In this document: positions 593 through 32,286 of the stretch, in pieces | How the letters are laid out: the number at the start of each line of letters is the position of its first letter | Numbering within the stretch: the first letter of the stretch is position 1 | From: a virus | Taxonomy: Duplodnaviria > Caudoviricetes | DNA length: 39,434 nucleotides | Virus record (IMG/VR): IMGVR_UViG_3300027874_000022 | Coordinates: 1 to 39,434 of that record | Strand: one strand, 5' to 3' | The notes under the pieces: generated by a model | What the model was told of the DNA's origin: nothing | Seen by the model: the letters and a program-made list of their open reading frames with translations, nothing else | The model's database searches: none | Translations under genes and position numbers: made by a program

Positions 593-811
593 ATGATCGC
601 ATACCAGAGCTTTCAGCCGCCTACCGATGAGTGGGCGAAGATGGTTTGCAAGGTCGGCCAGGGAGCGGAGTGTTGTCGGTATCTCACAGCGACCCCTGGG
701 GGCTGGTCATGCGCCAAGCATACGCCTCTCGCTCGCTTGCTTGATCGCAAGGTAGCGGCTGACAAGATGAGCGCACGAGGAGACAACTGTCTAGGTCGGG
801 GATCACGATGA
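593..811 (+). CDS. Small Cys-rich hypothetical phage protein
   Basis: 72 aa with C-x7-CC...C...C pattern; ATGA overlap with the next gene. Confidence 0.7.
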   Translation: MIAYQSFQPPTDEWAKMVCKVGQGAECCRYLTATPGGWSCAKHTPLARLLDRKVAADKMSARGDNCLGRGSR

Positions 812-1800
812 CGGCGACGACACTGGTTAAATCGTTTGCAAGGCTCGATGTCAAAGAATGGGACGGCCGACGCATCTCGATGCCGGGAATTTACAGCGAT
901 ATTCCTTTAGAAGATTATCACGGCGATATCTGCATTGAGCCATCGATCTCATCAACCGGACTGCGCAAACTCTACAGCCCATTTCCAAATGTGAAGGCAT
1001 CTCCAGCGCATTACTGGATGACTAGCCGATACAATCCAGAGCGCATCGAGGAGGACGAGACAGACGCAATTATCCTCGGGCGAGCTGCACATCATCTATT
1101 GTTTGGTGAAAAGAAATTTGATGAAGTGTTCGTCAGAAGACCAGCAACAGTCAATGGTGAAATCTGCAATCGCGTCACTCGCTCGGGCAAGGCGTGGCAT
1201 TTGAAACAAGAGAGACTCGGGCTCACCGTTATCAAGCCTGACCAGCTGGCAGCAATCAACGGCATCTATCGTGAGCTGAAAAAGGAGCCACTAATCTGGG
1301 ACCCGGAACGGAAACGCGAGGGACTTCTCAACGGCCTGATCGAGCATTCGATGTTTTGCAAACACCGCTGCGGCGTATGGCTCAAAATCAGACCAGATGC
1401 GATCCCTAACGACTCGATGGACTATGTTGATTTCAAAACAACCAGCTCGATCATGTGGCCAGACTTGCAGAATTCGATCAAGAAACTTGGTTATTTCATG
1501 CAAGCCGGGCTAACGGCGATGGTTGTCCATGCAGTCTTAGGTGAATGGATAAATTCGTACACCTTGGTATTTGCGGAAACGGCAGAGCCGCATTGCGTCG
1601 AGATCGTCACGCTCAAGGAAAATGACATCAAACGCGGGATCGACGCCTGCGAGATCGCGATATCGAAATTCATGAAATGCTGGGACGCCAAGCACTGGCC
1701 TGGACCGCGCGGCGATTGCCGTGATGCTAGGTACATCGAGATGACCCAATGGGATCAGAAGCAGATCGACGAGACACTGCAGCTAGATCGGAAGGGATGA
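808..1800 (+). CDS. recE: RecE/exonuclease VIII-like PD-(D/E)XK nuclease (DUF3799-like)
   Basis: GIY.DIP.EDYH, ISSTGL, SPAHY, GRAAH, E.SMF, KIRPD, DFKT, GYFMQA and terminal WPG motifs; sits upstream of a RecT-like gene. Confidence 0.85.
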   Translation: MTATTLVKSFARLDVKEWDGRRISMPGIYSDIPLEDYHGDICIEPSISSTGLRKLYSPFPNVKASPAHYWMTSRYNPERIEEDETDAIILGRAAHHLLFGEKKFDEVFVRRPATVNGEICNRVTRSGKAWHLKQERLGLTVIKPDQLAAINGIYRELKKEPLIWDPERKREGLLNGLIEHSMFCKHRCGVWLKIRPDAIPNDSMDYVDFKTTSSIMWPDLQNSIKKLGYFMQAGLTAMVVHAVLGEWINSYTLVFAETAEPHCVEIVTLKENDIKRGIDACEIAISKFMKCWDAKHWPGPRGDCRDARYIEMTQWDQKQIDETLQLDRKG

Positions 1801-1803
1801 GTT

Positions 1804-1910
1804 TGGTGAGGACGAAAAGGCATGGCAGGCGCGACGTGGTCCGATGGGGTCTGGCCCGACCTGTTAAGTTTCGGCTAGGCACGTTTTGGCCGGTTTATTC
1901 GTCCTCACCA
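1804..1910 (+). repeat. 13-bp inverted repeat enclosing an array of G-D-Y-N-N pentamers (candidate structured RNA/ssDNA element)
   Basis: TGGTGAGGACGAA (1804-1816) and TTCGTCCTCACCA (1898-1910) are exact reverse complements; G at every fifth base from 1828 to 1893 (14 times). Confidence 0.85.
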
Positions 1911-1931
1911 TATTTTTGAAGGGAGAGAAGC

Positions 1932-3008
1932 ATGACCGACATGACTATTGAACCCCCACTGTCCCAACAGCTCACCCGCATCGATGAGCCGATGGAGCGC
2001 AAGCGCGTCGGCGACATGGTTGTAACGAAGTGGGCTGGCCTCACCTTCAACGAGTATCGAGAGGCAATCGAATTCAGCAAGTTGATGGCGCAGGCCCGCA
2101 ATAGCGTACCCGCCTATCTCAAGCAGAATCCGGGCGACTGTCTCGCAATAGTGACGCAAGCACTGCGCTGGCATCTCGAACCGTATTGGGTCGCGCAACA
2201 TTCATACGTGGCTAGAGCGGAGAGTCTGATCGCCTATGACTCAGCAGTTCACACCGCGATCCTGCTCAGCTCGGGAATACTCACTGGTAGACCACTCTAC
2301 TCGTTCAACGGCGAAGGCGAAGAGCGGACTTGCACGGTGCAATGTCAGATCGGGCAACAGGTTCTCGACTACATCACACCTCCGCTGCGGCAATGTCGTC
2401 CGCCAAAGAACGAACAAGGCGTGGTCAAGGGATCACCACTGTGGACGAAAGACCCGGACCAGCAGCTTGGCTACTACGCCATCAGGAACTGGGGCCGCCG
2501 CCATACCCCGGAGCTGCTCGGTGGCGTCTATGACCGCGATGAATTCAACGAGACAACCCAGGACGTTGTCGAGGCCCCGACGAGCCCCAACCTGATCGAC
2601 CGGTTACCGGCCAGGATGGAGACCACGAAGGGGTTCCAGGAGAACGTGGTTGACGAGACGCTCAAGGGCAAGCCAGCGCTAGCCCCAGAGAAGGCCGCCG
2701 GTGAGGGGAAGGCGGAGGGTGAGGCCGATGTAGCGGCCAAGTCCGAAGCGCCAGCTACGCCCAACGCCAAGGGCAACGGTGAGCCATCCAAACCGGCACC
2801 CAAGACCCCAGCGACGGCTGACGAGTACATGACCTATGCCGCCCGATGGATCGAGCGGCTCGACGACGAAGAGGAGCTGAAAGCCCGCTGGGACGGCGAA
2901 AAGGAGCTGCGAGTTGGCCTGGGATTGCCGCTCGCCGTCCGCAAGCGCCTGGAGGGCATGCTGCATGCCCAGATCGCTACGGTGCAGCAAGGGAGGAAGC
3001 GGAAATGA
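1932..3008 (+). CDS. recT: RecT-family single-strand annealing protein with a low-complexity linker and helical C-terminal domain
   Basis: NPGDCLAIVTQA.RW..EPY.VAQ.SY, LWTKDPDQQLGY.A.RNW.RRH.PE.L.GVY..DE motifs; GGGAGAG RBS; follows the RecE-like gene. Confidence 0.8.
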   Translation: MTDMTIEPPLSQQLTRIDEPMERKRVGDMVVTKWAGLTFNEYREAIEFSKLMAQARNSVPAYLKQNPGDCLAIVTQALRWHLEPYWVAQHSYVARAESLIAYDSAVHTAILLSSGILTGRPLYSFNGEGEERTCTVQCQIGQQVLDYITPPLRQCRPPKNEQGVVKGSPLWTKDPDQQLGYYAIRNWGRRHTPELLGGVYDRDEFNETTQDVVEAPTSPNLIDRLPARMETTKGFQENVVDETLKGKPALAPEKAAGEGKAEGEADVAAKSEAPATPNAKGNGEPSKPAPKTPATADEYMTYAARWIERLDDEEELKARWDGEKELRVGLGLPLAVRKRLEGMLHAQIATVQQGRKRK

Positions 3009-3427
3009 TCGACAACGTTCACCAGATGCCCAAGAGGGCTGCGCTGACAGTTGAGGATGCCAAGCTCGTACAGCGTTACGAAGAACACCTGAAAGCCCTG
3101 CGCAGGCACCGCAAATTTTTAGAGAACAAGAAAGTTCACGCTACGCATATCCAGCTGCTATCCAGACTATCTGATAAGGAAGTGCCGGTGGAAAGACCAG
3201 GAGGCTATGGTGCTGATGGTCTTCATTACCGTTATGCGGAGAACGAAGGCTGGGAAGTCTACCATGCAATTGCTCATGGCAAGCTGAACATTGAGGTGTA
3301 TGCCCAAAACGGTATGGTGCCAACTCTCGGCCATCGCGTCATGGATGGTATCCGCGCCGCCGTAGCCGATGAGATCGAGGCCACAGAAAAGAAGATCGTC
3401 GATCTCGGCTTCGCGATCCCGAAATGA
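3005..3427 (+). CDS. Hypothetical protein
   Basis: Start placed at ATG 3005 (GGAGG RBS, ATGA overlap with recT); ATGA overlap with the next gene. Confidence 0.65.
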   Translation: MIDNVHQMPKRAALTVEDAKLVQRYEEHLKALRRHRKFLENKKVHATHIQLLSRLSDKEVPVERPGGYGADGLHYRYAENEGWEVYHAIAHGKLNIEVYAQNGMVPTLGHRVMDGIRAAVADEIEATEKKIVDLGFAIPK

Positions 3428-6173: not shown

Positions 6174-9100
6174 CTATGTCCCTCCCAACCATTCCGTGTC
6201 AGGCTTGCCAAACTGCTCCGCCGTCCAGCCCGACATGCTGCGGAAGAACGTGGCGATCTCCGCCTTGTGCTGTATCCAGCCGTCGCGGAAGGTGTGAGCG
6301 CTCGACCAACTCTTGTGGCGCTCGAAGTGGCCGCCATCCGGCGTCATCGGGACGCCGCAGCCGATGACCTTCTTGTAACCCTCACGCCGCGCGACCTCGC
6401 ATGCAAACAAACCGGAGGAGCCGCGCCACTCCATAGAGGCGGTGTCATGAGTGACGCAGGCGTGCTTGCGGTGTGCCCATATCTGCAACGGCTCCGGTAG
6501 TCCAGCCTTGCGGCGCGCGCCCAGCCAATTGTCCTGGCCGTTGAGCTTGTCGGGATGCAGCGTGCACGCAACCCCCAGCTCGGGGAACGACTTGATCTGA
6601 TCGTTGACATAAAAAAATCGAGCCCGCCGCCCGGCGATGATCTTCCTGGCTTCCTCCAAATCCTGTTGCCAACACTCGGCGCCGCCGATCACGATGGCGA
6701 CTTCCTCGCCGCCATCCTTGCGTGCTTCGACGGTGGCGGATTCGATCTTGTTGTACCTGTCGCCGATGACCTTGCCGTGGCCCTCGATGTTGCGCAGCAC
6801 CGGATCGTCAGATTTGCCCGGCTCGTATGACCGCACATCATTGAAACCAGAGAAATACAAAACATCGCGCATGAGCTGCGCGTTCCAGATCATCTGGTGT
6901 CCGTGCGCAAAGATGATCGCGTGCATGGCTCCGCGCTTGGTCGGCCCGACGTTCTGCCATTTCAGGGTGAAATTGTAGTAGTCGCTCTCGCTGCACTTCG
7001 CGATCTGCTCCAGGCTCGGCACCGTGACCCGCAGCACGCCGCCGGGGACCAACACACGGTGCGCCTCCTTGAAGAAGTCGATGGCCTGCTTGTGGGTGAC
7101 GTGCTCGACAACGTGCTCGGCGAAAACGTAATTCACACTGCTGTCGTCCCATGGTAGGCGCTTGGTGATGTCCACGTCGGCATCGTGGTTGTCCCAACCC
7201 GAAAGTTTGTTGTTGCCGCACCCCAAATTTTTTCGTACTAAGGGTAAGGCGCGGCATGTTTCGGCACGGTAAGGTCTGTCTTGATTAGGCACGATCCGGC
7301 TGGGCTGGGCAGGTTTGGTCAGGTCCCCGGCGCTTACAGTCGCCGCTACAGTTTGAAGCACGTCAGTTCGTGCCGGGGCCTGGGCCAACGCCATCTCGGT
7401 GAATTTGCGGTAGACGCCTTGCTGCGCAGAATCATGTTGATGCGTGATCCAATCCGCGTTTATTTTCTCGATGTTCTGCACGCTGATCTGATTCTTGTCA
7501 GCTCGTAACGCTTTCCACGGCATGATCCGGAATTGCTTTGCGTTCAGGTCCTGCTTCAAGATCGCCATGTTGATGTAGCGCTCTGGCGTTGGAGCGACCC
7601 GGCGGTTAGGCCAATCGTAACGCTTGATGAAATCACTGCGCGCGATGTAGTCGGTGTTGAAGAACATCAGCCCGGTTTCGATCCATTGTGTCTCTACTTC
7701 GACGTTGCGCATGCCGCGCACATGCGTGCTGGCGCAATCGATGCCCTCAGCCTTCATCTGCTGTACGATTGGTCCGACAGGTAGACGCAATAGTGAATCA
7801 CCCTCGATGTGAGCGACGTATTCGTAATTAAGCTGGCAGGCGATCTCCAAGCCTTTGCAGAACGCGCGGCCCCAACCGTCGCGACCTTGCGTGACATTCC
7901 GGCGACTAAGGTGGCCGATGTTGTCGGGGAAGTCGAAGCGCATTTTGTGATGTCGAGTTTTACCGTCATAGAGCGTCCAGTCCTTGAATTTCTTGATCGG
8001 TGATTGTGAATCCACCACCAGGAAATCGCAGTCCTGATCATTCAGCGTGACGTGCAGCTTCTCCCAAAGATCAGTGAGATTGTCGCGATCCGGCGAGTCC
8101 ACATAGAAGGTGCCGAAGAGCAGCGTATTCCGCTGCATCCGGTCGCCCACGAACTCCTTGATCTTGGCCAGCGCCGCCGGGACATCGATGCGCTTGTCGC
8201 AGCGGTGGCTGTTGCTGTGACAGTCGCACGGCGTGATCGGGTCGATGGGACAAGTTGGCGCGAGATGAGCACCCACACGCTGTGTTGTGCGGTAGCTTTC
8301 CCGGCCGCCATAGACACAGATCACTGCCGTGCCGACTGCCTGCGCCAGAACCGGCGCAAAGCCAGCGTTGCAGAAGACGAGGTCCGCCTCGGCAAATAGT
8401 GCCGCCATCTCCGGGAACGCCAGCTCACCCTTATGTAGCTTGATGTCCGCTTCCTGCTGCGGCCCTTCGATCCATTCCCGGCCCTGAGCTAGATCGGCAA
8501 GGCTGATCACGAAGTATTTGTCACGGATCGAGCGGAACAGCTCGTCATAGGTCTTCGGGTCTGGATTGCGCGAGCGGCCGTCCCATTCGTTGCGCACCAC
8601 GATGGGCCGGTGCACCAACAATGGTTTTCCATTGGGATTCCATTGTTTGATTGCGCCCCTGATCTTGTCTCGCCACTCCGGCTTGATCGGCAGGCTGAAA
8701 TCCGGCCGCTCCGGCATCTTGAGGCCGACGCAGGAGAACATCGCTTCAAGGATCGAACCGTGCTGATCGACCAGCACTTTCGGATAGCCGATGTTGTGCT
8801 GAATTGCGTTCTCCGGCACCAGCGGAAAGTTGGCAGCCTGGAACCGCTCATGCTCACGCTGCATCGTCTTGGCCTGGGCGTGCAGGCTGGTCGGCCGCAT
8901 CACCAGCTTGAGCCCGCGCTCGATCAGGTCGTGATAAAGCTCGAAGTGACAGGTGTGCAGCCAGACATCATAGGTCTTGAGTAGCTCGCGCATCACCGCG
9001 CGCTGATGGATGTTATCGCCGATGCCGAAGTGACCGCGCACCGAGAGTGCTTGTCGGCCGGTTGCCGGTGCTGGTGGCGGTGGCTCGGCCGCGGCGCTCC

Positions 9101-9272
9101 TGGCGAAGGACATCTTCTTGATCACGAGGTCGCCGCGCATGCAGAGCTGCTCGAAGGTGCCCTCGTTGATATCGACGTGCTTCAATGCGCCGGGAGCCAC
9201 CTCGATCTCGCGCTCGTTCACGTCGTAGAAGACACGCTTGGAAGCCGAGGCATTGAGGATCGAGCAGATCAT
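6174..9272 (-). CDS. Multi-domain glycan-modifying enzyme: short N-terminal module + GT9-like (GT-B) glycosyltransferase + GT-A-like domain + class I SAM methyltransferase + sialyltransferase/Maf-like domain
   Basis: GIGDNI...ADLVFCNAGFAPVLAQAVGTAVICVYG (GT9); FLVVDSQSP...GWGRAF.KGL...YEYVAHIEGD (GT-A-like); NLGCG...LPWDDSSVNYVFAEHVVEH...HRVLVPGGVLRVTVP (Methyltransf_11-like); AIVIGGA...VND...GSSGLFA...GYKKVIGCGVPM (CstII/Maf-like fold, inferred). Confidence 0.8.
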   Translation of the reverse strand: MICSILNASASKRVFYDVNEREIEVAPGALKHVDINEGTFEQLCMRGDLVIKKMSFARSAAAEPPPPAPATGRQALSVRGHFGIGDNIHQRAVMRELLKTYDVWLHTCHFELYHDLIERGLKLVMRPTSLHAQAKTMQREHERFQAANFPLVPENAIQHNIGYPKVLVDQHGSILEAMFSCVGLKMPERPDFSLPIKPEWRDKIRGAIKQWNPNGKPLLVHRPIVVRNEWDGRSRNPDPKTYDELFRSIRDKYFVISLADLAQGREWIEGPQQEADIKLHKGELAFPEMAALFAEADLVFCNAGFAPVLAQAVGTAVICVYGGRESYRTTQRVGAHLAPTCPIDPITPCDCHSNSHRCDKRIDVPAALAKIKEFVGDRMQRNTLLFGTFYVDSPDRDNLTDLWEKLHVTLNDQDCDFLVVDSQSPIKKFKDWTLYDGKTRHHKMRFDFPDNIGHLSRRNVTQGRDGWGRAFCKGLEIACQLNYEYVAHIEGDSLLRLPVGPIVQQMKAEGIDCASTHVRGMRNVEVETQWIETGLMFFNTDYIARSDFIKRYDWPNRRVAPTPERYINMAILKQDLNAKQFRIMPWKALRADKNQISVQNIEKINADWITHQHDSAQQGVYRKFTEMALAQAPARTDVLQTVAATVSAGDLTKPAQPSRIVPNQDRPYRAETCRALPLVRKNLGCGNNKLSGWDNHDADVDITKRLPWDDSSVNYVFAEHVVEHVTHKQAIDFFKEAHRVLVPGGVLRVTVPSLEQIAKCSESDYYNFTLKWQNVGPTKRGAMHAIIFAHGHQMIWNAQLMRDVLYFSGFNDVRSYEPGKSDDPVLRNIEGHGKVIGDRYNKIESATVEARKDGGEEVAIVIGGAECWQQDLEEARKIIAGRRARFFYVNDQIKSFPELGVACTLHPDKLNGQDNWLGARRKAGLPEPLQIWAHRKHACVTHDTASMEWRGSSGLFACEVARREGYKKVIGCGVPMTPDGGHFERHKSWSSAHTFRDGWIQHKAEIATFFRSMSGWTAEQFGKPDTEWLGGT

Positions 9273-27018: not shown

Positions 27019-27398
27019 GGCGTGTTCTCCGTCGCCAACACTGTCATGATCCCCCACGAGCCGCCGATGATCTCGCCGCTGGCGTTCTGGATTGTGGCTT
27101 CGTGATAATAATTTCTCAGCATGGCGAGGGTGTCCGCAGTGTGCATCTGCACCGTGAAGCTGAGGGGCGAGTCGATGCCGACAATATCAGGCGTTGGGCT
27201 CTCAAGTGAACTCTTTGCGATCAGTAATTCGTCCCGCTTGGGGATACCTTGAAACTGGCTATAGACGTTCCAAAAAATTTTTGTGTCAACCAGCGACGGT
27301 GTTACGATGGGATTGACGATGAATGTGATGACCTGATTGTACCCGGCAGGTATTGAAAAATTCTGCGGTGTCATCATTGAAACGGTGATGCCGTTCAT
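27015..27398 (-). CDS. BppU N-terminal-like Ig-fold fibre adaptor
   Basis: F.I.AG....ITF...FTVQM..ADT..L...YYHEA.I....GE.....G.MTV pattern. Confidence 0.55.
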   Translation of the reverse strand: MNGITVSMMTPQNFSIPAGYNQVITFIVNPIVTPSLVDTKIFWNVYSQFQGIPKRDELLIAKSSLESPTPDIVGIDSPLSFTVQMHTADTLAMLRNYYHEATIQNASGEIIGGSWGIMTVLATENTP

Positions 27399-30300
27399 GG
27401 GTCCACCTTTAGCTTCGGGTCGATCCTCGATGCTTCTAGCACAGCATCAGGCTTCGACGCTTCCAGCTCAGCGCTGGTTTTGGACGCCTCCAGCTCGGCG
27501 ATAGTCCTCGACGCTGTCAGCTCGGCGCTGGTCTTCGAAGCTATCAACTCAGCGCTGGTTTTGGACACTTCCAATTCGGCGCTGGTCTTCGAGGCCAACA
27601 ACCCGACACTTGGTCTCGACGCCGCCAGCTCGGCCTGGGTCTTCGAGGCCAACAGTGTAGCGCTGATCTCCCAAGCTCTGAGATACTTGAAGCGTGGTCG
27701 CGCCTTAACAATGGCTGTTGCAAGCCGGATAAACTGACTTATCCCCAGACTTATCTCGATCACGAAGGTGGTGACGTGGTGAACGCTGGCCTGGAAGGCG
27801 ACTGCAATCGACGTGCTAAGCGTGATGGTGACGCCCGTGAGCGCCGCGGCGAGGAGCTTCACGTTCTGCGGCGACTGCACCAAAATTCTGCGGGCACTCA
27901 TTCTCCGCAACGTGACCAGCTCGTCTTGGCTCAGCGTAATAGTCTTGGCCGCTCGCTCGATCAGGCTGATATTTTGCGTCGTGAGCAGCATCGTGCTGAC
28001 TGTCTTCGCCGCCGTTCTCACGACCGTCACGGTCTCGCCGATCAGGATCACGCGGGTGCGCGGGAAGGTGTGCCGAAGGATCAGGCTCTCGCCCTGGCTG
28101 ATGGTGATGGTCGCATGGCGGAGCCCACCACCGAGCCCAAGGGTGACCAGCTCCGCGGTCGAGACCTGGATCAAGTGCCCCATCCTCCGGGCGAGGCTCA
28201 CCAGCGAGCTTTGGGCGACCGTCAGGGTGATCTGATGCGCCGCCCTAGCTAGCAGCGTGACGGCCTCGCCCTGCGTCAGGACGATGGCACGTAGCTTGGT
28301 CTGGACCCTCGCCAGGGTGACCAGGGAGGGCGAGGCGATGGTGATCAGCCGGGTCCTGGCCACGGAAAGGCCAAGGGTTACCACCTCGGGGATTGCGACC
28401 AGGATGGTGCGGAAATGGGCCGCCCGTGCCGTCAGGGTCACCAGCTCGGACTGCAGCAGCTGGATGGTGCGCCGGTAGGCTGATCTTGCCGTCAGCGTGA
28501 CCGCCTGCGCTTGCGAGATCAGGATGGTCTGCGATGCCAGCCGCCTGAGCGTCACCAGCTCGCCAATCGATACCGTGATCGTCCGCAGGAACGCCTTGGT
28601 TGCGGCGAGCGTAACCAGCTGGGAACTGGAGATTAGAATGGCCCTAATGTGCTTCGCCCCTGCAGTCAGGGTGACAAGTGACGGCATGGCCAGGGTAATT
28701 AGCCGCCGCGTGCTCCGTAACAGGCTGATCGATTGCGGAGACAGGACCGTGATCACCAGCTTGCCGGAAGCGAGTGGGATCAGCGTCACCAGTTCGCCTA
28801 TGGCGACCAGGATGGTCTTGGCCGATGTCCTCGTCAGCGTGACGCTCTGACCAATCGAGATCGAGAGCGTCCGCAGCGCGCTCCGCACTCGCGATAGCGT
28901 TACGGCTTGGGCCTGCAGGATCGAGATCAGCGCCTGCTTTGATGACTTAAAAGTCAACGTCACCAGCTCGGCCTGGGTGAACACGATAGTCTTCGTGTAC
29001 TGGATTGCCCCACTGATGTACTGGGTGGCCAGCGTTACAAACTCACCGATCTGCACCGTGATCGTACGCTGCAACCGGCGCAGTGCCGACAATGTGACCA
29101 GCTGCCCCGTGCTGACCAAGATTGTGCGCAACGCCGCCTTGATCGCCGTCAGTGTCACGAGCTGAGGCTGACTGAGCAGGAAGGTGCGCGACAATGATAA
29201 TCGCATCGCCAGCGTCACGAGCTGGTTAGTCATCACGTTGATCAGCACCTGACCTTTGCCGAGATAGCTGAGCGTCACTCTCTCTGGCCATGCGATGGTG
29301 AAAGTGCGAGACAACGACAAGCGCATCGCCAACGTAACCAGCTGATTGGTCGCCACCAGGATGCCGCGCACGCTCTTGCGAGCGAGTGTGACGAGCTGGC
29401 CCTGTCCAAGCGTTATCGTCCAGACGTGCGCACCGACTCGTGTCAGGGTGACGAGCGACGACTGCGTGACAGTGATCGTCTTGAGCGCAGCCTTCATTGC
29501 ATTGAGTGTGACAGTCTCCCCAATGCTGATGATCAAAGCCTGGATATGCGCAGCCGATCTAGCCAGCGTCACCGACGAGGACTGCGACAAGCTGATTGTT
29601 CTGAGCGCCGTCTTGATCGTGCTGATCGTCACGCTTTGCGCGATGCTGGCGGCAATCGAGACAGAATGAGCTGCGCGCTCGACTAACGTCACCAGCGACG
29701 ACTGCGCCACCGTGATCAGCCGCAATGCGGCCCTGAGCATGGTCAATGTGACCGTCTCGCCGATGCTGATCACAATGGTGCGCGGATGAAATGCGCTCCT
29801 CGCAAGCGTCACCAGCTCCGCGATGGTAACGACAATAGCCTGCTGGGCCTGCTTGATCCGCGCTAGCGTCACCGCCTCGCTCTGGGATATGGCAATTGCC
29901 AGGGTATGAAATGCCGTGCGCGCGAGAGTGATCAATTGCGCCGTAGCCACGCTGATCGCTTGTCTGGCCTGCTTCAATCGCGCCAGCGTCACGAGCTGGG
30001 CCTGGGCCACATTGATTGCGGCTGGATGCGCCGCCAGCCTTATGAGCGTGACCAGCTCCCCAATGCTGACCTGAATGGCGGCAATTGCCTGCTTGATGCG
30101 GGCCAAGGTGACAGCCTGGGCCTGGGCGATGGTGATATTGGCGAAGTGCGCAGCGGTACGGACTAAGGTGACGAGTTGCGCCGAGCTGATCGTGATGGTG
30201 CGCAGCGCGCGCTTGATCGCGATCAGCGTCACCGTCGATGGCTGGGTGATGAGAATAGTGCGGAGATATCGCCCAACCTCCGCCAGCGTCACGAGCTGGG

Positions 30301-31624
30301 CCTGCAGTACCGTGATTGTCTTAGTGAACTGTTGCGTTCCTGAAATGAACGTCGGGACCAGCGTCACCAGCTCCGCGATGCTGATGGAGATGGTGCGTAG
30401 AGCGGCCTTGACCCGCGTGAGCGTGACCAGTTGCGATGACAGGATAGATATCGTGCGCCGGTACAGCTCAGTTTCTGTCATCGTGACGAGCTGAGCTTGC
30501 AGCACCGTGATGGTTCGCCGATAGAACTCAACCTCCGTCATGGTCACGAGCTGCGCCTGGAGGATCGTCTCAGTATTGGCGATGGCCCTCCGCAGGGTGA
30601 CGAGCTGGGCTTGCGTGATTTGCACCGGCTGCGATTTGGCAGCAAGACGCACGAGCGTGACCAGCTGACCATGTGCGCTAGTGATCGCTCGCGAGACAGC
30701 CTTGGTCCTGGTCAGGGTGACAAGTTGGCCGAAGGGGGCTGTGATCGTGCGCCGGTAGAACTCCGTCTCCGTCATGGTGACAAGCGGCGCTATGACGACA
30801 TTGATCGTTCTCCGATAGAGTTCCGTCTCTGTCATCGTAACGAGCTGGCCCTGCAGAATTGTCTCGGTATCGACAATCGCCTTCCGCAGCGTAACCAATT
30901 GGCCATGGGCGCTGGTGATGGTCTTTTGCACGGCCTTCAATCGTGCCAGCGTCACAGTCTCGGCGATGGATATTAGGATTGTCCTGAGCCTCGATGTCAG
31001 CGTTGTCAGCGTAACAAGCTGCGCTTGAGCGATAGTCTCGGTATCTCTGATCGCCTTCAACAATGAAACCAGCATGCCCTGACTGATGCTGATGTTCCTC
31101 AGCGTTGCCTTGATGCGCGCCAGCGTCACTGTTGACGGATGCCCACTAAGGATCGTGCGCGGCAGTCTTTTGCTGATGGTTACCAACTCACCGATCTGCA
31201 CTGTAATCGTGCGACGATAGCTTTCGATCTCCGTCATCGTCACGAGCTGCGGGGTCGAGACCAGGATAGTACGGAGATATTTCCCGATCCCGGTCACGGT
31301 CACGAGCTGGCCAATCGAGACGCTAATTGCCTTCCCGACGCTCTTGATGCGCGCCAATGTGACCAGCTCTGCGCTCGATACAGTGATCGTCCGCAGTACG
31401 CTTTTGATCCTGGCCAGCGTCACTGACTGCGCCAACGCAACAGAGATCGTCCGCCGCGCCGTCAATTTCGGCTGGACTAAAGATGCTGAGAGTTTCTGCG
31501 AGCTTTGATTGATCTGGACTTGCGAACCGGCGGCATTGGTGACAAGCGTCCCCGATCTATCGGTTACCCAGATATTCGGATCGTCGGGCGCAACAACATA
31601 GAGAGTGATCAGATATTGTGTCAT
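27395..31624 (-). CDS. Giant beta-repeat fibre-like protein (1409 aa, about 62 repeats of 20 aa, consensus xRxxAxxRTIxISQAQLVTL)
   Basis: Repeats read directly from the translation; start at ATG 31624 (GAGG RBS, ATGA overlap with the methyltransferase). Confidence 0.75.
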   Translation of the reverse strand: MTQYLITLYVVAPDDPNIWVTDRSGTLVTNAAGSQVQINQSSQKLSASLVQPKLTARRTISVALAQSVTLARIKSVLRTITVSSAELVTLARIKSVGKAISVSIGQLVTVTGIGKYLRTILVSTPQLVTMTEIESYRRTITVQIGELVTISKRLPRTILSGHPSTVTLARIKATLRNISISQGMLVSLLKAIRDTETIAQAQLVTLTTLTSRLRTILISIAETVTLARLKAVQKTITSAHGQLVTLRKAIVDTETILQGQLVTMTETELYRRTINVVIAPLVTMTETEFYRRTITAPFGQLVTLTRTKAVSRAITSAHGQLVTLVRLAAKSQPVQITQAQLVTLRRAIANTETILQAQLVTMTEVEFYRRTITVLQAQLVTMTETELYRRTISILSSQLVTLTRVKAALRTISISIAELVTLVPTFISGTQQFTKTITVLQAQLVTLAEVGRYLRTILITQPSTVTLIAIKRALRTITISSAQLVTLVRTAAHFANITIAQAQAVTLARIKQAIAAIQVSIGELVTLIRLAAHPAAINVAQAQLVTLARLKQARQAISVATAQLITLARTAFHTLAIAISQSEAVTLARIKQAQQAIVVTIAELVTLARSAFHPRTIVISIGETVTLTMLRAALRLITVAQSSLVTLVERAAHSVSIAASIAQSVTISTIKTALRTISLSQSSSVTLARSAAHIQALIISIGETVTLNAMKAALKTITVTQSSLVTLTRVGAHVWTITLGQGQLVTLARKSVRGILVATNQLVTLAMRLSLSRTFTIAWPERVTLSYLGKGQVLINVMTNQLVTLAMRLSLSRTFLLSQPQLVTLTAIKAALRTILVSTGQLVTLSALRRLQRTITVQIGEFVTLATQYISGAIQYTKTIVFTQAELVTLTFKSSKQALISILQAQAVTLSRVRSALRTLSISIGQSVTLTRTSAKTILVAIGELVTLIPLASGKLVITVLSPQSISLLRSTRRLITLAMPSLVTLTAGAKHIRAILISSSQLVTLAATKAFLRTITVSIGELVTLRRLASQTILISQAQAVTLTARSAYRRTIQLLQSELVTLTARAAHFRTILVAIPEVVTLGLSVARTRLITIASPSLVTLARVQTKLRAIVLTQGEAVTLLARAAHQITLTVAQSSLVSLARRMGHLIQVSTAELVTLGLGGGLRHATITISQGESLILRHTFPRTRVILIGETVTVVRTAAKTVSTMLLTTQNISLIERAAKTITLSQDELVTLRRMSARRILVQSPQNVKLLAAALTGVTITLSTSIAVAFQASVHHVTTFVIEISLGISQFIRLATAIVKARPRFKYLRAWEISATLLASKTQAELAASRPSVGLLASKTSAELEVSKTSAELIASKTSAELTASRTIAELEASKTSAELEASKPDAVLEASRIDPKLKVDP
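27420..27655 (-). repeat. Nine degenerate 27-bp coding repeats (ASKTSAELE)
   Basis: ASKTQAELA ASRPSVGLL ASKTSAELE VSKTSAELI ASKTSAELT ASRTIAELE ASKTSAELE ASKPDAVLE ASRIDPKLK; boundaries approximate. Confidence 0.8.
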
Positions 31625-32286
31625 TTCCTCTGATACGCAGCCCAGAACGTTCCATTCTGCATCCATCCCGGCGCAATAGCTTCATCCAACTTCTGTTTGA
31701 AGGTAATCGAATCAAACCCATGATCCAGGATCATTTCGTTGACATCGATGCCGTCGTCGGCCCACTCACCGCCCTCGACCGGCAGGCAGCGGGTGTGATT
31801 GTTGACCACGAACAGCTTGCCCTCCGGCTTCAATACATACGCGATTCGGTTCAATGCATCTCGCAGATCGATGCAGTGTTGCAGCGCCCACACCGCGATC
31901 ACAGCGTTGAACTTGTTGGCTTGGCCGAAAAATATGAGATCAAACATCGACGGATCACAAGCGATGAACGCAGCGCTATCGACCAGCGAGGTGGCCAGCG
32001 CTCGCATGTTGGGCGAGATATCAACCCCAACCACCTTGCAATCGAGCTTCTGGATCAACGGTTTCGACAAGCGGCCAATGCCGCAACCATAATCGAGAAC
32101 CAGATCGCCCTGATTGATATATGGTTCCATCAGAGCGATCAGCGCTGGAGTTTCCTCGTCCCAGCGCTGCTTGACGGTCATCCCCTCAGTCGGGGTCACG
32201 ATGATGTGGGCAGCTTCCTCAACGGTCTCGATATCGATGAAGCGAGCCGGATCGTAGGCAACTTTCTTTAGCTCCGGCATCAGCAT
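31621..32286 (-). CDS. Class I SAM-dependent methyltransferase (small-molecule/glycan type)
   Basis: VLDYGCGIGRL, VVGVDISPNM, WALQHC, VLKPEGKLFV; no DNA-methyltransferase catalytic motif. Confidence 0.85.
   Translation of the reverse strand: MLMPELKKVAYDPARFIDIETVEEAAHIIVTPTEGMTVKQRWDEETPALIALMEPYINQGDLVLDYGCGIGRLSKPLIQKLDCKVVGVDISPNMRALATSLVDSAAFIACDPSMFDLIFFGQANKFNAVIAVWALQHCIDLRDALNRIAYVLKPEGKLFVVNNHTRCLPVEGGEWADDGIDVNEMILDHGFDSITFKQKLDEAIAPGWMQNGTFWAAYQRK

Follow-up and report, generated by a model that had tools for sequence, protein, structure and literature searches.

The window analysed here, a stretch of 39,434 nucleotides taken at its whole length, belongs to the source record of a 39.4-kb virus from soil metagenomes. 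An alphaproteobacterial host is inferred, because the named homologues of its RecE come from Alphaproteobacteria. Positions 700–3100 are spanned by contigs of the sequencing runs X1 and X2 with zero differences; the window may itself derive from these runs. In this region, a stem-enclosed pentamer repeat lies between two recombination genes. Pfam and PHROG profiles confirm the neighbours named in the initial annotation, a DUF3799/exonuclease VIII (RecE-like) gene upstream and a RecT gene downstream, and the locus is organized as follows:

808–1800, plus strand: recE-like exonuclease (DUF3799/exonuclease VIII) of 330 amino acids (PF12684, E 3.5e-16; phrog_412, E 5e-53)
1531–1566, plus strand: own allele of the predicted target of guide A1 (units 1–12; own match 17/24)
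1804–1816, plus strand: 5' arm of the closing stem (sequence, folding)
1819–1827, plus strand: GGCAT-GGCA leader with a one-base phase slip, a junction as between the units of the 3-kb staggered array described below
1828–1897, plus strand: guide A1, 14 G-D-Y-N-N units, the NN letters of units 1–12 spelling recE codons of relatives
1898–1910, plus strand: 3' arm of the closing stem (sequence, folding)
1919–1925, plus strand: ribosome-binding site of recT, outside the 13-bp stem (sequence)
1932–3008, plus strand: recT single-strand annealing protein of 358 amino acids (PF03837, E 5e-9; phrog_561)

Re-reading the sequence bears out the geometry given earlier: the arms form an exact 13-bp inverted repeat, the 81-nt loop parses completely as 2+5+4+70 nt, and the stem ends 8 nt before the purine-rich ribosome-binding site. 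All 14 units keep the rule of a G, a letter other than C and a pyrimidine (7 GGY, 3 GAY and 4 GTY), while the longest G-D-Y-N-N run in simulated windows is 4–7 units (60 order-3 Markov simulations). A perfect enclosing stem of at least 10 bp occurs in 1/285 surveyed guide units, which is A1 only, in a survey that missed the hairpin of the relative G001 with its bulges and nine units. Folded alone, the loop is no more stable than its shuffles (z +0.6); once the stem closes it, it is mostly paired by prediction (z -4.0).

Two other identities were tried and rejected for this element. For a hammerhead ribozyme, whose stem II and GAAA we take the 5' arm to resemble, the remainder of the core is missing, the 5' arm is paired off and the motif occurs in the 90 nt upstream of none of the surveyed arrays. 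For a miniature transposon, TG...CA ends are present, but a flanking duplication is absent and the exact copies of the arm are only two; at two mismatches the arm has nine copies, more than in shuffles and mostly in coding DNA. The arm motif was also sought before other arrays, giving three matches, none of them with an array. Elsewhere in the window, the minus strand of recE (1480–1514) holds seven Gs in 5-nt phase, which is within the range of the simulations, and positions 27395–31666 of the minus strand hold a 1423-aa open reading frame with many imperfect I/T/V/L-rich repeats and a Q-L-V-T-L motif.

Five-nucleotide spacing is found in TRAP-binding RNA, with its (G/U)AG triplets, and T4 gp32 acts at the leader of its own mRNA. 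A1 has the spacing of the former and, like the gp32 leader, sits in a leader; unlike TRAP-binding RNA, it has a (G/U)AG start in none of its units and its spacer letters encode a DNA target. A different precedent is provided by the VIPR systems (Vipr, vrRNA and vap) described in 2026 from Escherichia phage SUSP1 and a Pseudomonas fulva prophage (10.64898/2026.04.26.720920 and the accessible part of 10.64898/2026.04.26.720927), to which a further preprint, likewise accessible in part, is devoted (10.64898/2026.10.21.760802). In a vrRNA, 9–16 units each combine a fixed triplet with two variable letters, and it is the latter that pair with DNA, every third base of which is skipped (10.64898/2026.04.26.720920). 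In the accessible text on the filament, one Vipr subunit holds each pentamer and the filament engages from the 3' end (10.64898/2026.04.26.720927). SUSP1 VIPR acts as a transcription roadblock, and type II VIPR represses, cutting not being shown; changes to GGY abolished silencing in SUSP1, related consensi besides GGY/NN are allowed in the methods, and the published surveys contain no self-match of at least 80% (10.64898/2026.04.26.720920).

A1 is similar to these guides in its alternation of a fixed triplet with NN, in its number of units (14 within 9–16) and in having a target that is found only with a one-base skip. It differs in that half of its triplets are GAY or GTY and no vipr gene stands beside it, and the structure predicted for it is a closing stem, type II vrRNAs having a conserved structured 3' tail with a pseudoknot. 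Two earlier proposals for the element survive in part. A track phased at 5 nt for an oligomeric protein stands, with Vipr binding one pentamer per subunit in the accessible account, while its presentation as a single strand does not agree with the predicted fold, in which the closed loop is largely paired. As to an unrecognised class of non-coding RNA, A1 is absent from Rfam (0 matches at the gathering score over the whole window, the best local hit, E 1.7, being a miRNA model), but the class itself has been in print since 2026 as vrRNA.

We applied the VIPR reading rule (two letters, skip one) to the NN letters of A1. Decoded in this way, the guide corresponds to codon positions 1–2 of recE about 260 bp upstream of itself, and the skipped base falls on codon position 3, the wobble position. 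Searched against the whole window with skip-1, the dinucleotides of A1 match best at 1531, in recE, with 8/14 units; 46/3000 shuffles have eight units genome-wide and 2/3000 within 500 bp. Units 1–12 decode as A V P G L P L N S Y T L/F, and units 13–14 have no fit to the recE site. The own RecE reads AVLGEWINSYTL at this site and the closest RecE relative, P0002 (86% identical), reads AVLGLPLNSYTL, agreeing by amino acid with 11/12 of the first guide codons. GQPLNS is found here in most close RecE relatives; at codons 1543–1551 the own protein has E-W-I versus QPL or LPL in close relatives. The P of unit 6 is present in 26/30 of the closest RecE relatives and the own W in 0/119 relatives, and only one of the 328 three-residue windows departs from the family more than EWI does.

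The same holds at the DNA level. Over 12 units and 61 distinct sites, the phage L004 reaches 21/24 (87.5%, above the 80% VIPR criterion), L005 and L001 reach 20/24, and the own allele reaches 17/24 (71%, below 80%); L006, with a 70% identical RecE and no guide after recE, also has only 17/24. When units 13 and 14 are included, the highest DNA score is 22/28 (79%), slightly below the published 80% line. Exact decoded targets were sought in a viral-contig and a genome-contig collection, with 0 matches in each. The repeat form, the recE target, the wobble register, the better fit to relatives and the own change to EWI can all be read from the DNA itself.

The same layout occurs in two further guides of this phage and one of G001. 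The first, A2, lies inside a coding region:

6174–9272, minus strand: 1032-aa gene with a methyltransferase domain, which hosts A2 and whose family is targeted by A2
7243–7327, plus strand: guide A2 (17 G-D-Y-N-N units), within the part of the 1032-aa gene that encodes the interdomain linker, on the opposite strand and in frame
7387–7425, plus strand: own allele of the A2 target, 60 bp from A2 (own 21/26, G001 24/26)

The host gene is a large fused gene, glycosyltransferase-like by the source names of its relatives, and is conserved across the family. Since the 17 units of A2 run in frame through it, a 5-nt period does not exclude coding, contrary to the initial annotation. The best skip-1 dinucleotide match of A2 in the genome lies 60 bp away with 10/17 units (shuffles 0/3000), the skipped base again on the wobble position of the 1032-aa gene. 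Units 1–13 stand before a GGCA/GG junction, and the own site scores 21/26 (81%) on these 13 units and 21/34 on all 17. Read in the sense of the gene, unit 9 spells the V that 22/34 relatives have; the own T is found in 0/34. The linker bearing A2 measures 53 aa versus 15–62 aa in relatives, and has a repeat-derived look in 0/34 of them. No stem was found at A2, and no sigma-70 promoter was seen next to A1 or A2.

Over 6.8 kb, two sister assemblies, L002 and L014, share 99.0% and 99.8% identity with the window, and they reach 4.2 kb further left, where they contain one more feature:

311–3355 of L002/L014, left of the window, plus strand: 3-kb staggered guide array of 54 segments, 46 of them at least 44 nt long

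Its segments are joined by the same GGCA/GG slip as stands before A1, and positions 1818–1839 equal one of its junctions with one difference; the GGCAT-GGCA leader at 1819–1827 is a likely processing boundary. The array has many phase slips. It ends in a strong terminator-like hairpin and is without a vipr gene directly upstream; L002 and L014 differ by two bases inside it. Its last unit matches the adjoining RuvC-like gene with 18/24 in the own allele versus 21–23/24 in four distinct relatives, the skipped base being on codon position 3. When the array was decoded against a small genome set, 2/47 stretches beat all 25 shuffles, only that at L002:3287 convincingly, and the targets of most array guides were not found among the few genomes compared.

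The fourth guide belongs to G001, the closest relative by RecT (79%), and has a counterpart site in the window:

2052–2078, plus strand: recT site of this phage matched by the G001 guide (15/18; 11/300 shuffles reach 15 in the window)

G001 carries its own hairpin (z -6.2) just before the recT ribosome-binding site, enclosing a 9-unit guide (L059:13615–13659) that decodes as EYREAVEFA. Its match to recT is 18/18 in L018 and L023 and 14/18 in its own gene, and here too the wobble base is the one skipped. The stems at the base of the A1 and G001 hairpins look similar and, if homologous, are separated by two G-C to A-U swaps, two sequences being no proof. The 3' half of the G001 hairpin (L059:13600–13709) resembles GGYNN units on the other strand, as if the hairpin were closed by a second, inverted array.

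The position of these hairpins bears on the first reading of A1, as a RecT autoregulatory operator or a track for RecT loading and annealing. The array indeed stands just before the recT ribosome-binding site, and G001 has a hairpin-enclosed array at the same place. The enrichment of such arrays next to recT that this reading had called for is not seen: among 27 distinct recT leaders (start positions of distant homologues being approximate), 23 lack the phase, three have a strict in-phase run of at least five units, and a fourth has nine units with one deviant. All three array-bearing leaders other than that of this phage stand beside a vipr-like gene. That the array is present in few recT leaders, and there beside vipr, argues against an operator or loading site. 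In addition, the same repeat occurs at 7243 and in the 3-kb array, away from recT, and a model in which RecT coats the array would not lead one to expect recE codons in the decoded NN letters. We therefore consider a role in RecT binding highly improbable.

To compare all four guides with a confident target, the one in the 3-kb array being L002:3287, we used a family set of 87 sequences (1.8 Mb, both strands), which was built around recE and hence favours neighbour targets. Their best skip-1 scores are 21/24 for A1, 24/26 for A2, 23/24 for L002:3287 and 18/18 for L059:13615. No shuffle was as good as any of them (0/200), and the skip-0 and skip-2 readings reach 15–19, those of A1 17–19. Positions 4–5 of the pentamers, once described as free, thus encode the target. 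All four guides aim at the adjoining gene, 60–300 bp from the own copy. Partial matching of the own copy might be seen as tuned self-regulation, by which Vipr would dampen the own recE-recT operon: units 8–12 of A1, the five 3'-most that match the target, match the own recE allele in full, and the own site of A2 stands at 81%. For each of the four guides, however, some relatives fit better than self, and the published surveys lack self-matches of 80% or more (10.64898/2026.04.26.720920), which makes such tuning very unlikely.

Guides of this form usually have their effector at hand. A scan of viral sequences for GGCA-GGY followed by 11 G-D-Y units gave flanks for 80/127 loci and usable units for 73, and a Vipr-HMM match lies within 2 kb in 63 of these 73. 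In the window and the 4.2 kb to its left (43.6 kb of an incomplete genome), no vipr gene was found by HMM (best E 2.1) or tblastn. The L004 vipr gene, compared at 80% with four sequencing runs, yielded no piece on the long contigs of this phage, which does not imply absence; run X2 contains both this phage and the L004 vipr gene. Both the vipr-like gene of L004 and SUSP1 Vipr belong to phrog_4652, although the direct similarity of the former to the solved SUSP1 chain is weak (E 0.067). By its sequence, the A1 locus fits a solo guide and not a full VIPR system. In the accessible part of a recent preprint, solo (orphan) vrRNAs are reported from F5 satellites and from VIPR-null phages of the SUSP1 family, where they stand at the deletion site (10.64898/2026.10.15.759431). 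As far as that text goes, they are like A1 in lacking an effector, in presumably borrowing Vipr, in a self-score below that of rivals and, for some, in aiming at relatives. The guides published there aim at REP elements, vipr, other vrRNAs and satellites, those of the present family at recE, recT, a RuvC-like resolvase gene and a methyltransferase-domain gene, each guide standing beside the recoded own allele.

Relatives of this phage carry the more complete arrangement. A vipr-like gene lies near recE in L004, L059, L063, L090 and L021, and in L059, L021 and L063 whole VIPR cassettes occupy the recE-recT junction, a recurring home in this phage family. A1 might accordingly be seen as the decaying remnant of a recE-[vipr-vap-array]-recT cassette: its letters would stem from an earlier recE allele and it would be dead by now, while the own gene drifted. 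Such cassettes at the same junction would agree with this, as would the solo guides published at the deletion site of VIPR-null phages (10.64898/2026.10.15.759431, accessible part) and the phase slips and mostly targetless guides of the 3-kb array. Against decay, the stem of A1 is perfect and its G-D-Y phase is unbroken over all 14 units; drift also leaves unexplained why residues that no relative has, W (0/119) and T (0/34), fall at positions that the guides read. We regard a dead remnant as improbable, but a remnant origin is compatible with present function.

Beyond this family, targeting of a neighbour is a minority trait. In unrelated viruses, a match in the flanks was found for 6/137 and 10/283 guide units, compared with 1–3 when other skips were used, the latter count of units being about the nominal chance count. 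At p≤0.033, the 283 units gave ten flank matches with skip-1, two with skip-0 and three with skip-2. Nine of the ten lie in a family-annotated gene and 8/9 of these skip the wobble base, whereas by a longest-ORF rule, which is crude and often picks antisense shadows, 4/10 are wobble-aligned versus 99/263. At L267:902–1318, a guide stands 3 nt after a RusA-like resolvase gene and spells that gene, its own copy matching 8/15 units; no vipr match was found in this 2.8-kb locus. Guides of L146, L120, L281, L137, L183 and L309 show wobble-aligned partial matches to nearby genes. The genes so matched are those for tail terminator, vipr, decoration, terminase, tape measure, accessory and methyltransferase proteins.

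We propose that A1 is a stand-alone VIPR guide, which likely directs Vipr to silence the recE of rival phages while the recoded own allele escapes. It shares with VIPR guides the skipped wobble base and a self-match below the rival match, and with their arrays the staggering with one-base overlap, and relatives carry a Vipr of phrog_4652. In contrast to published VIPR, the guides of this phage lie inside the recE-recT message or a coding linker, and their targets are core genes of the same phage family that adjoin the guide; that only 7/14 units of A1 are canonical GGY also speaks against this explanation. Further points against it are the vipr gene missing from the 43.6 kb, the 79% match with all 14 units, the lack of an exact decoded target in the two contig collections, the second rank of EWI, the equally low score of L006 and the rarity of neighbour targeting in the survey. 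A1 would be transcribed within the recE-recT message, as no separate promoter is seen, and would be cut out at the closing stem and the GGCA/GG junction. It could then load Vipr encoded in the unsequenced part of the genome or supplied by a relative that infects the same cell, for example L004, both a vipr carrier and the best-matching DNA target found for A1. The guide-loaded filament would bind the rival recE and roadblock transcription of its recE operon, as SUSP1 VIPR does in print. Guide and recoded site, only some hundred bases from each other, may form one poison-and-antidote cassette: where phages exchange modules, the guide would have to travel with the resistant allele because without it the guide would hit its own carrier. 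A clean self-escape is not certain, since A1 units 8–12 match the own allele and the filament, in the accessible description, engages from the 3' end; the A2 own site, too, is at 81%.

This geometry resembles that of the free-standing homing endonucleases of T4 (seg/mob), which, according to the accessible part of the source, are flanked by conserved genes and make their cut in a neighbouring gene, hundreds of bases off (PMC2988022). Similar to these, the guide stands between conserved genes and is aimed at the neighbouring gene of related phages, the own allele being altered; unlike these, its specificity resides in RNA instead of protein and no nuclease was identified. RNA-guided homing could thus be envisaged, in which the filament would stall or break the rival chromosome and repair by RecE/RecT would copy the guide together with the recoded site. 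By analogy with seg/mob, the distance of 60–300 bp between each of the four guides and the own copy of its target gene speaks for homing, and so does their sporadic presence, with an array after recE in 0/9 of the closest distinct recE relatives (one with almost no flank) and a repeat-derived linker at the A2 position in 0/34. Conversely, no nuclease partner was found, the accessory gene of L004 (phrog_15946) having no known function, and for type II VIPR the published effect is repression, cutting not being shown (10.64898/2026.04.26.720920). In the same runs, an empty recE-recT allele was sought as a joint skipping the array, and none was found. We hold homing to be a possible but rather unlikely alternative to the silencing by a stand-alone guide proposed above. 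In the same tentative sense, VIPR guides might be nuclease-free, RNA-only homing elements of about 100 nt, hairpin-enclosed, lodged beside a conserved gene and relying on a Vipr borrowed from the own or a rival phage, and thus a natural RNA-guided gene drive. If so, reciprocal guides would meet at the recE-recT junction, that of this phage against recE and that of G001 against recT, and coding linkers, too, would be invaded by guides in frame.

Already published are this class of guide with its code, the staggered arrays, the solo guides and the lower self-scores. In the literature, bioRxiv supplements aside and some preprints being accessible in part, we found no account of guides next to a core gene whose own allele is recoded, of a hairpin-enclosed guide in a recT leader or of a guide embedded in a coding linker. 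Neither "homing" nor "allele" is used as a word in the main text, as far as accessible and supplementary tables aside, of the preprint on solo guides (10.64898/2026.10.15.759431), and a search for VIPR and homing together gave only unrelated papers.

In summary, the odd repeat can be read as a guide whose target has a name, and the two matched natural alleles of that target (own 17/24, L004 21/24) allow a direct test of how VIPR tells self from rival. Hairpin-enclosed guides in the recT leaders of two related phages and the guide in the linker point to ways of making a guide from an mRNA or from the antisense strand that the accessible VIPR papers do not describe. Shared by four guides of this family and by those of a few unrelated viruses, the layout suggests that solo guides move as poison-and-antidote cassettes, and such guides may drive allele replacement in core phage genes.
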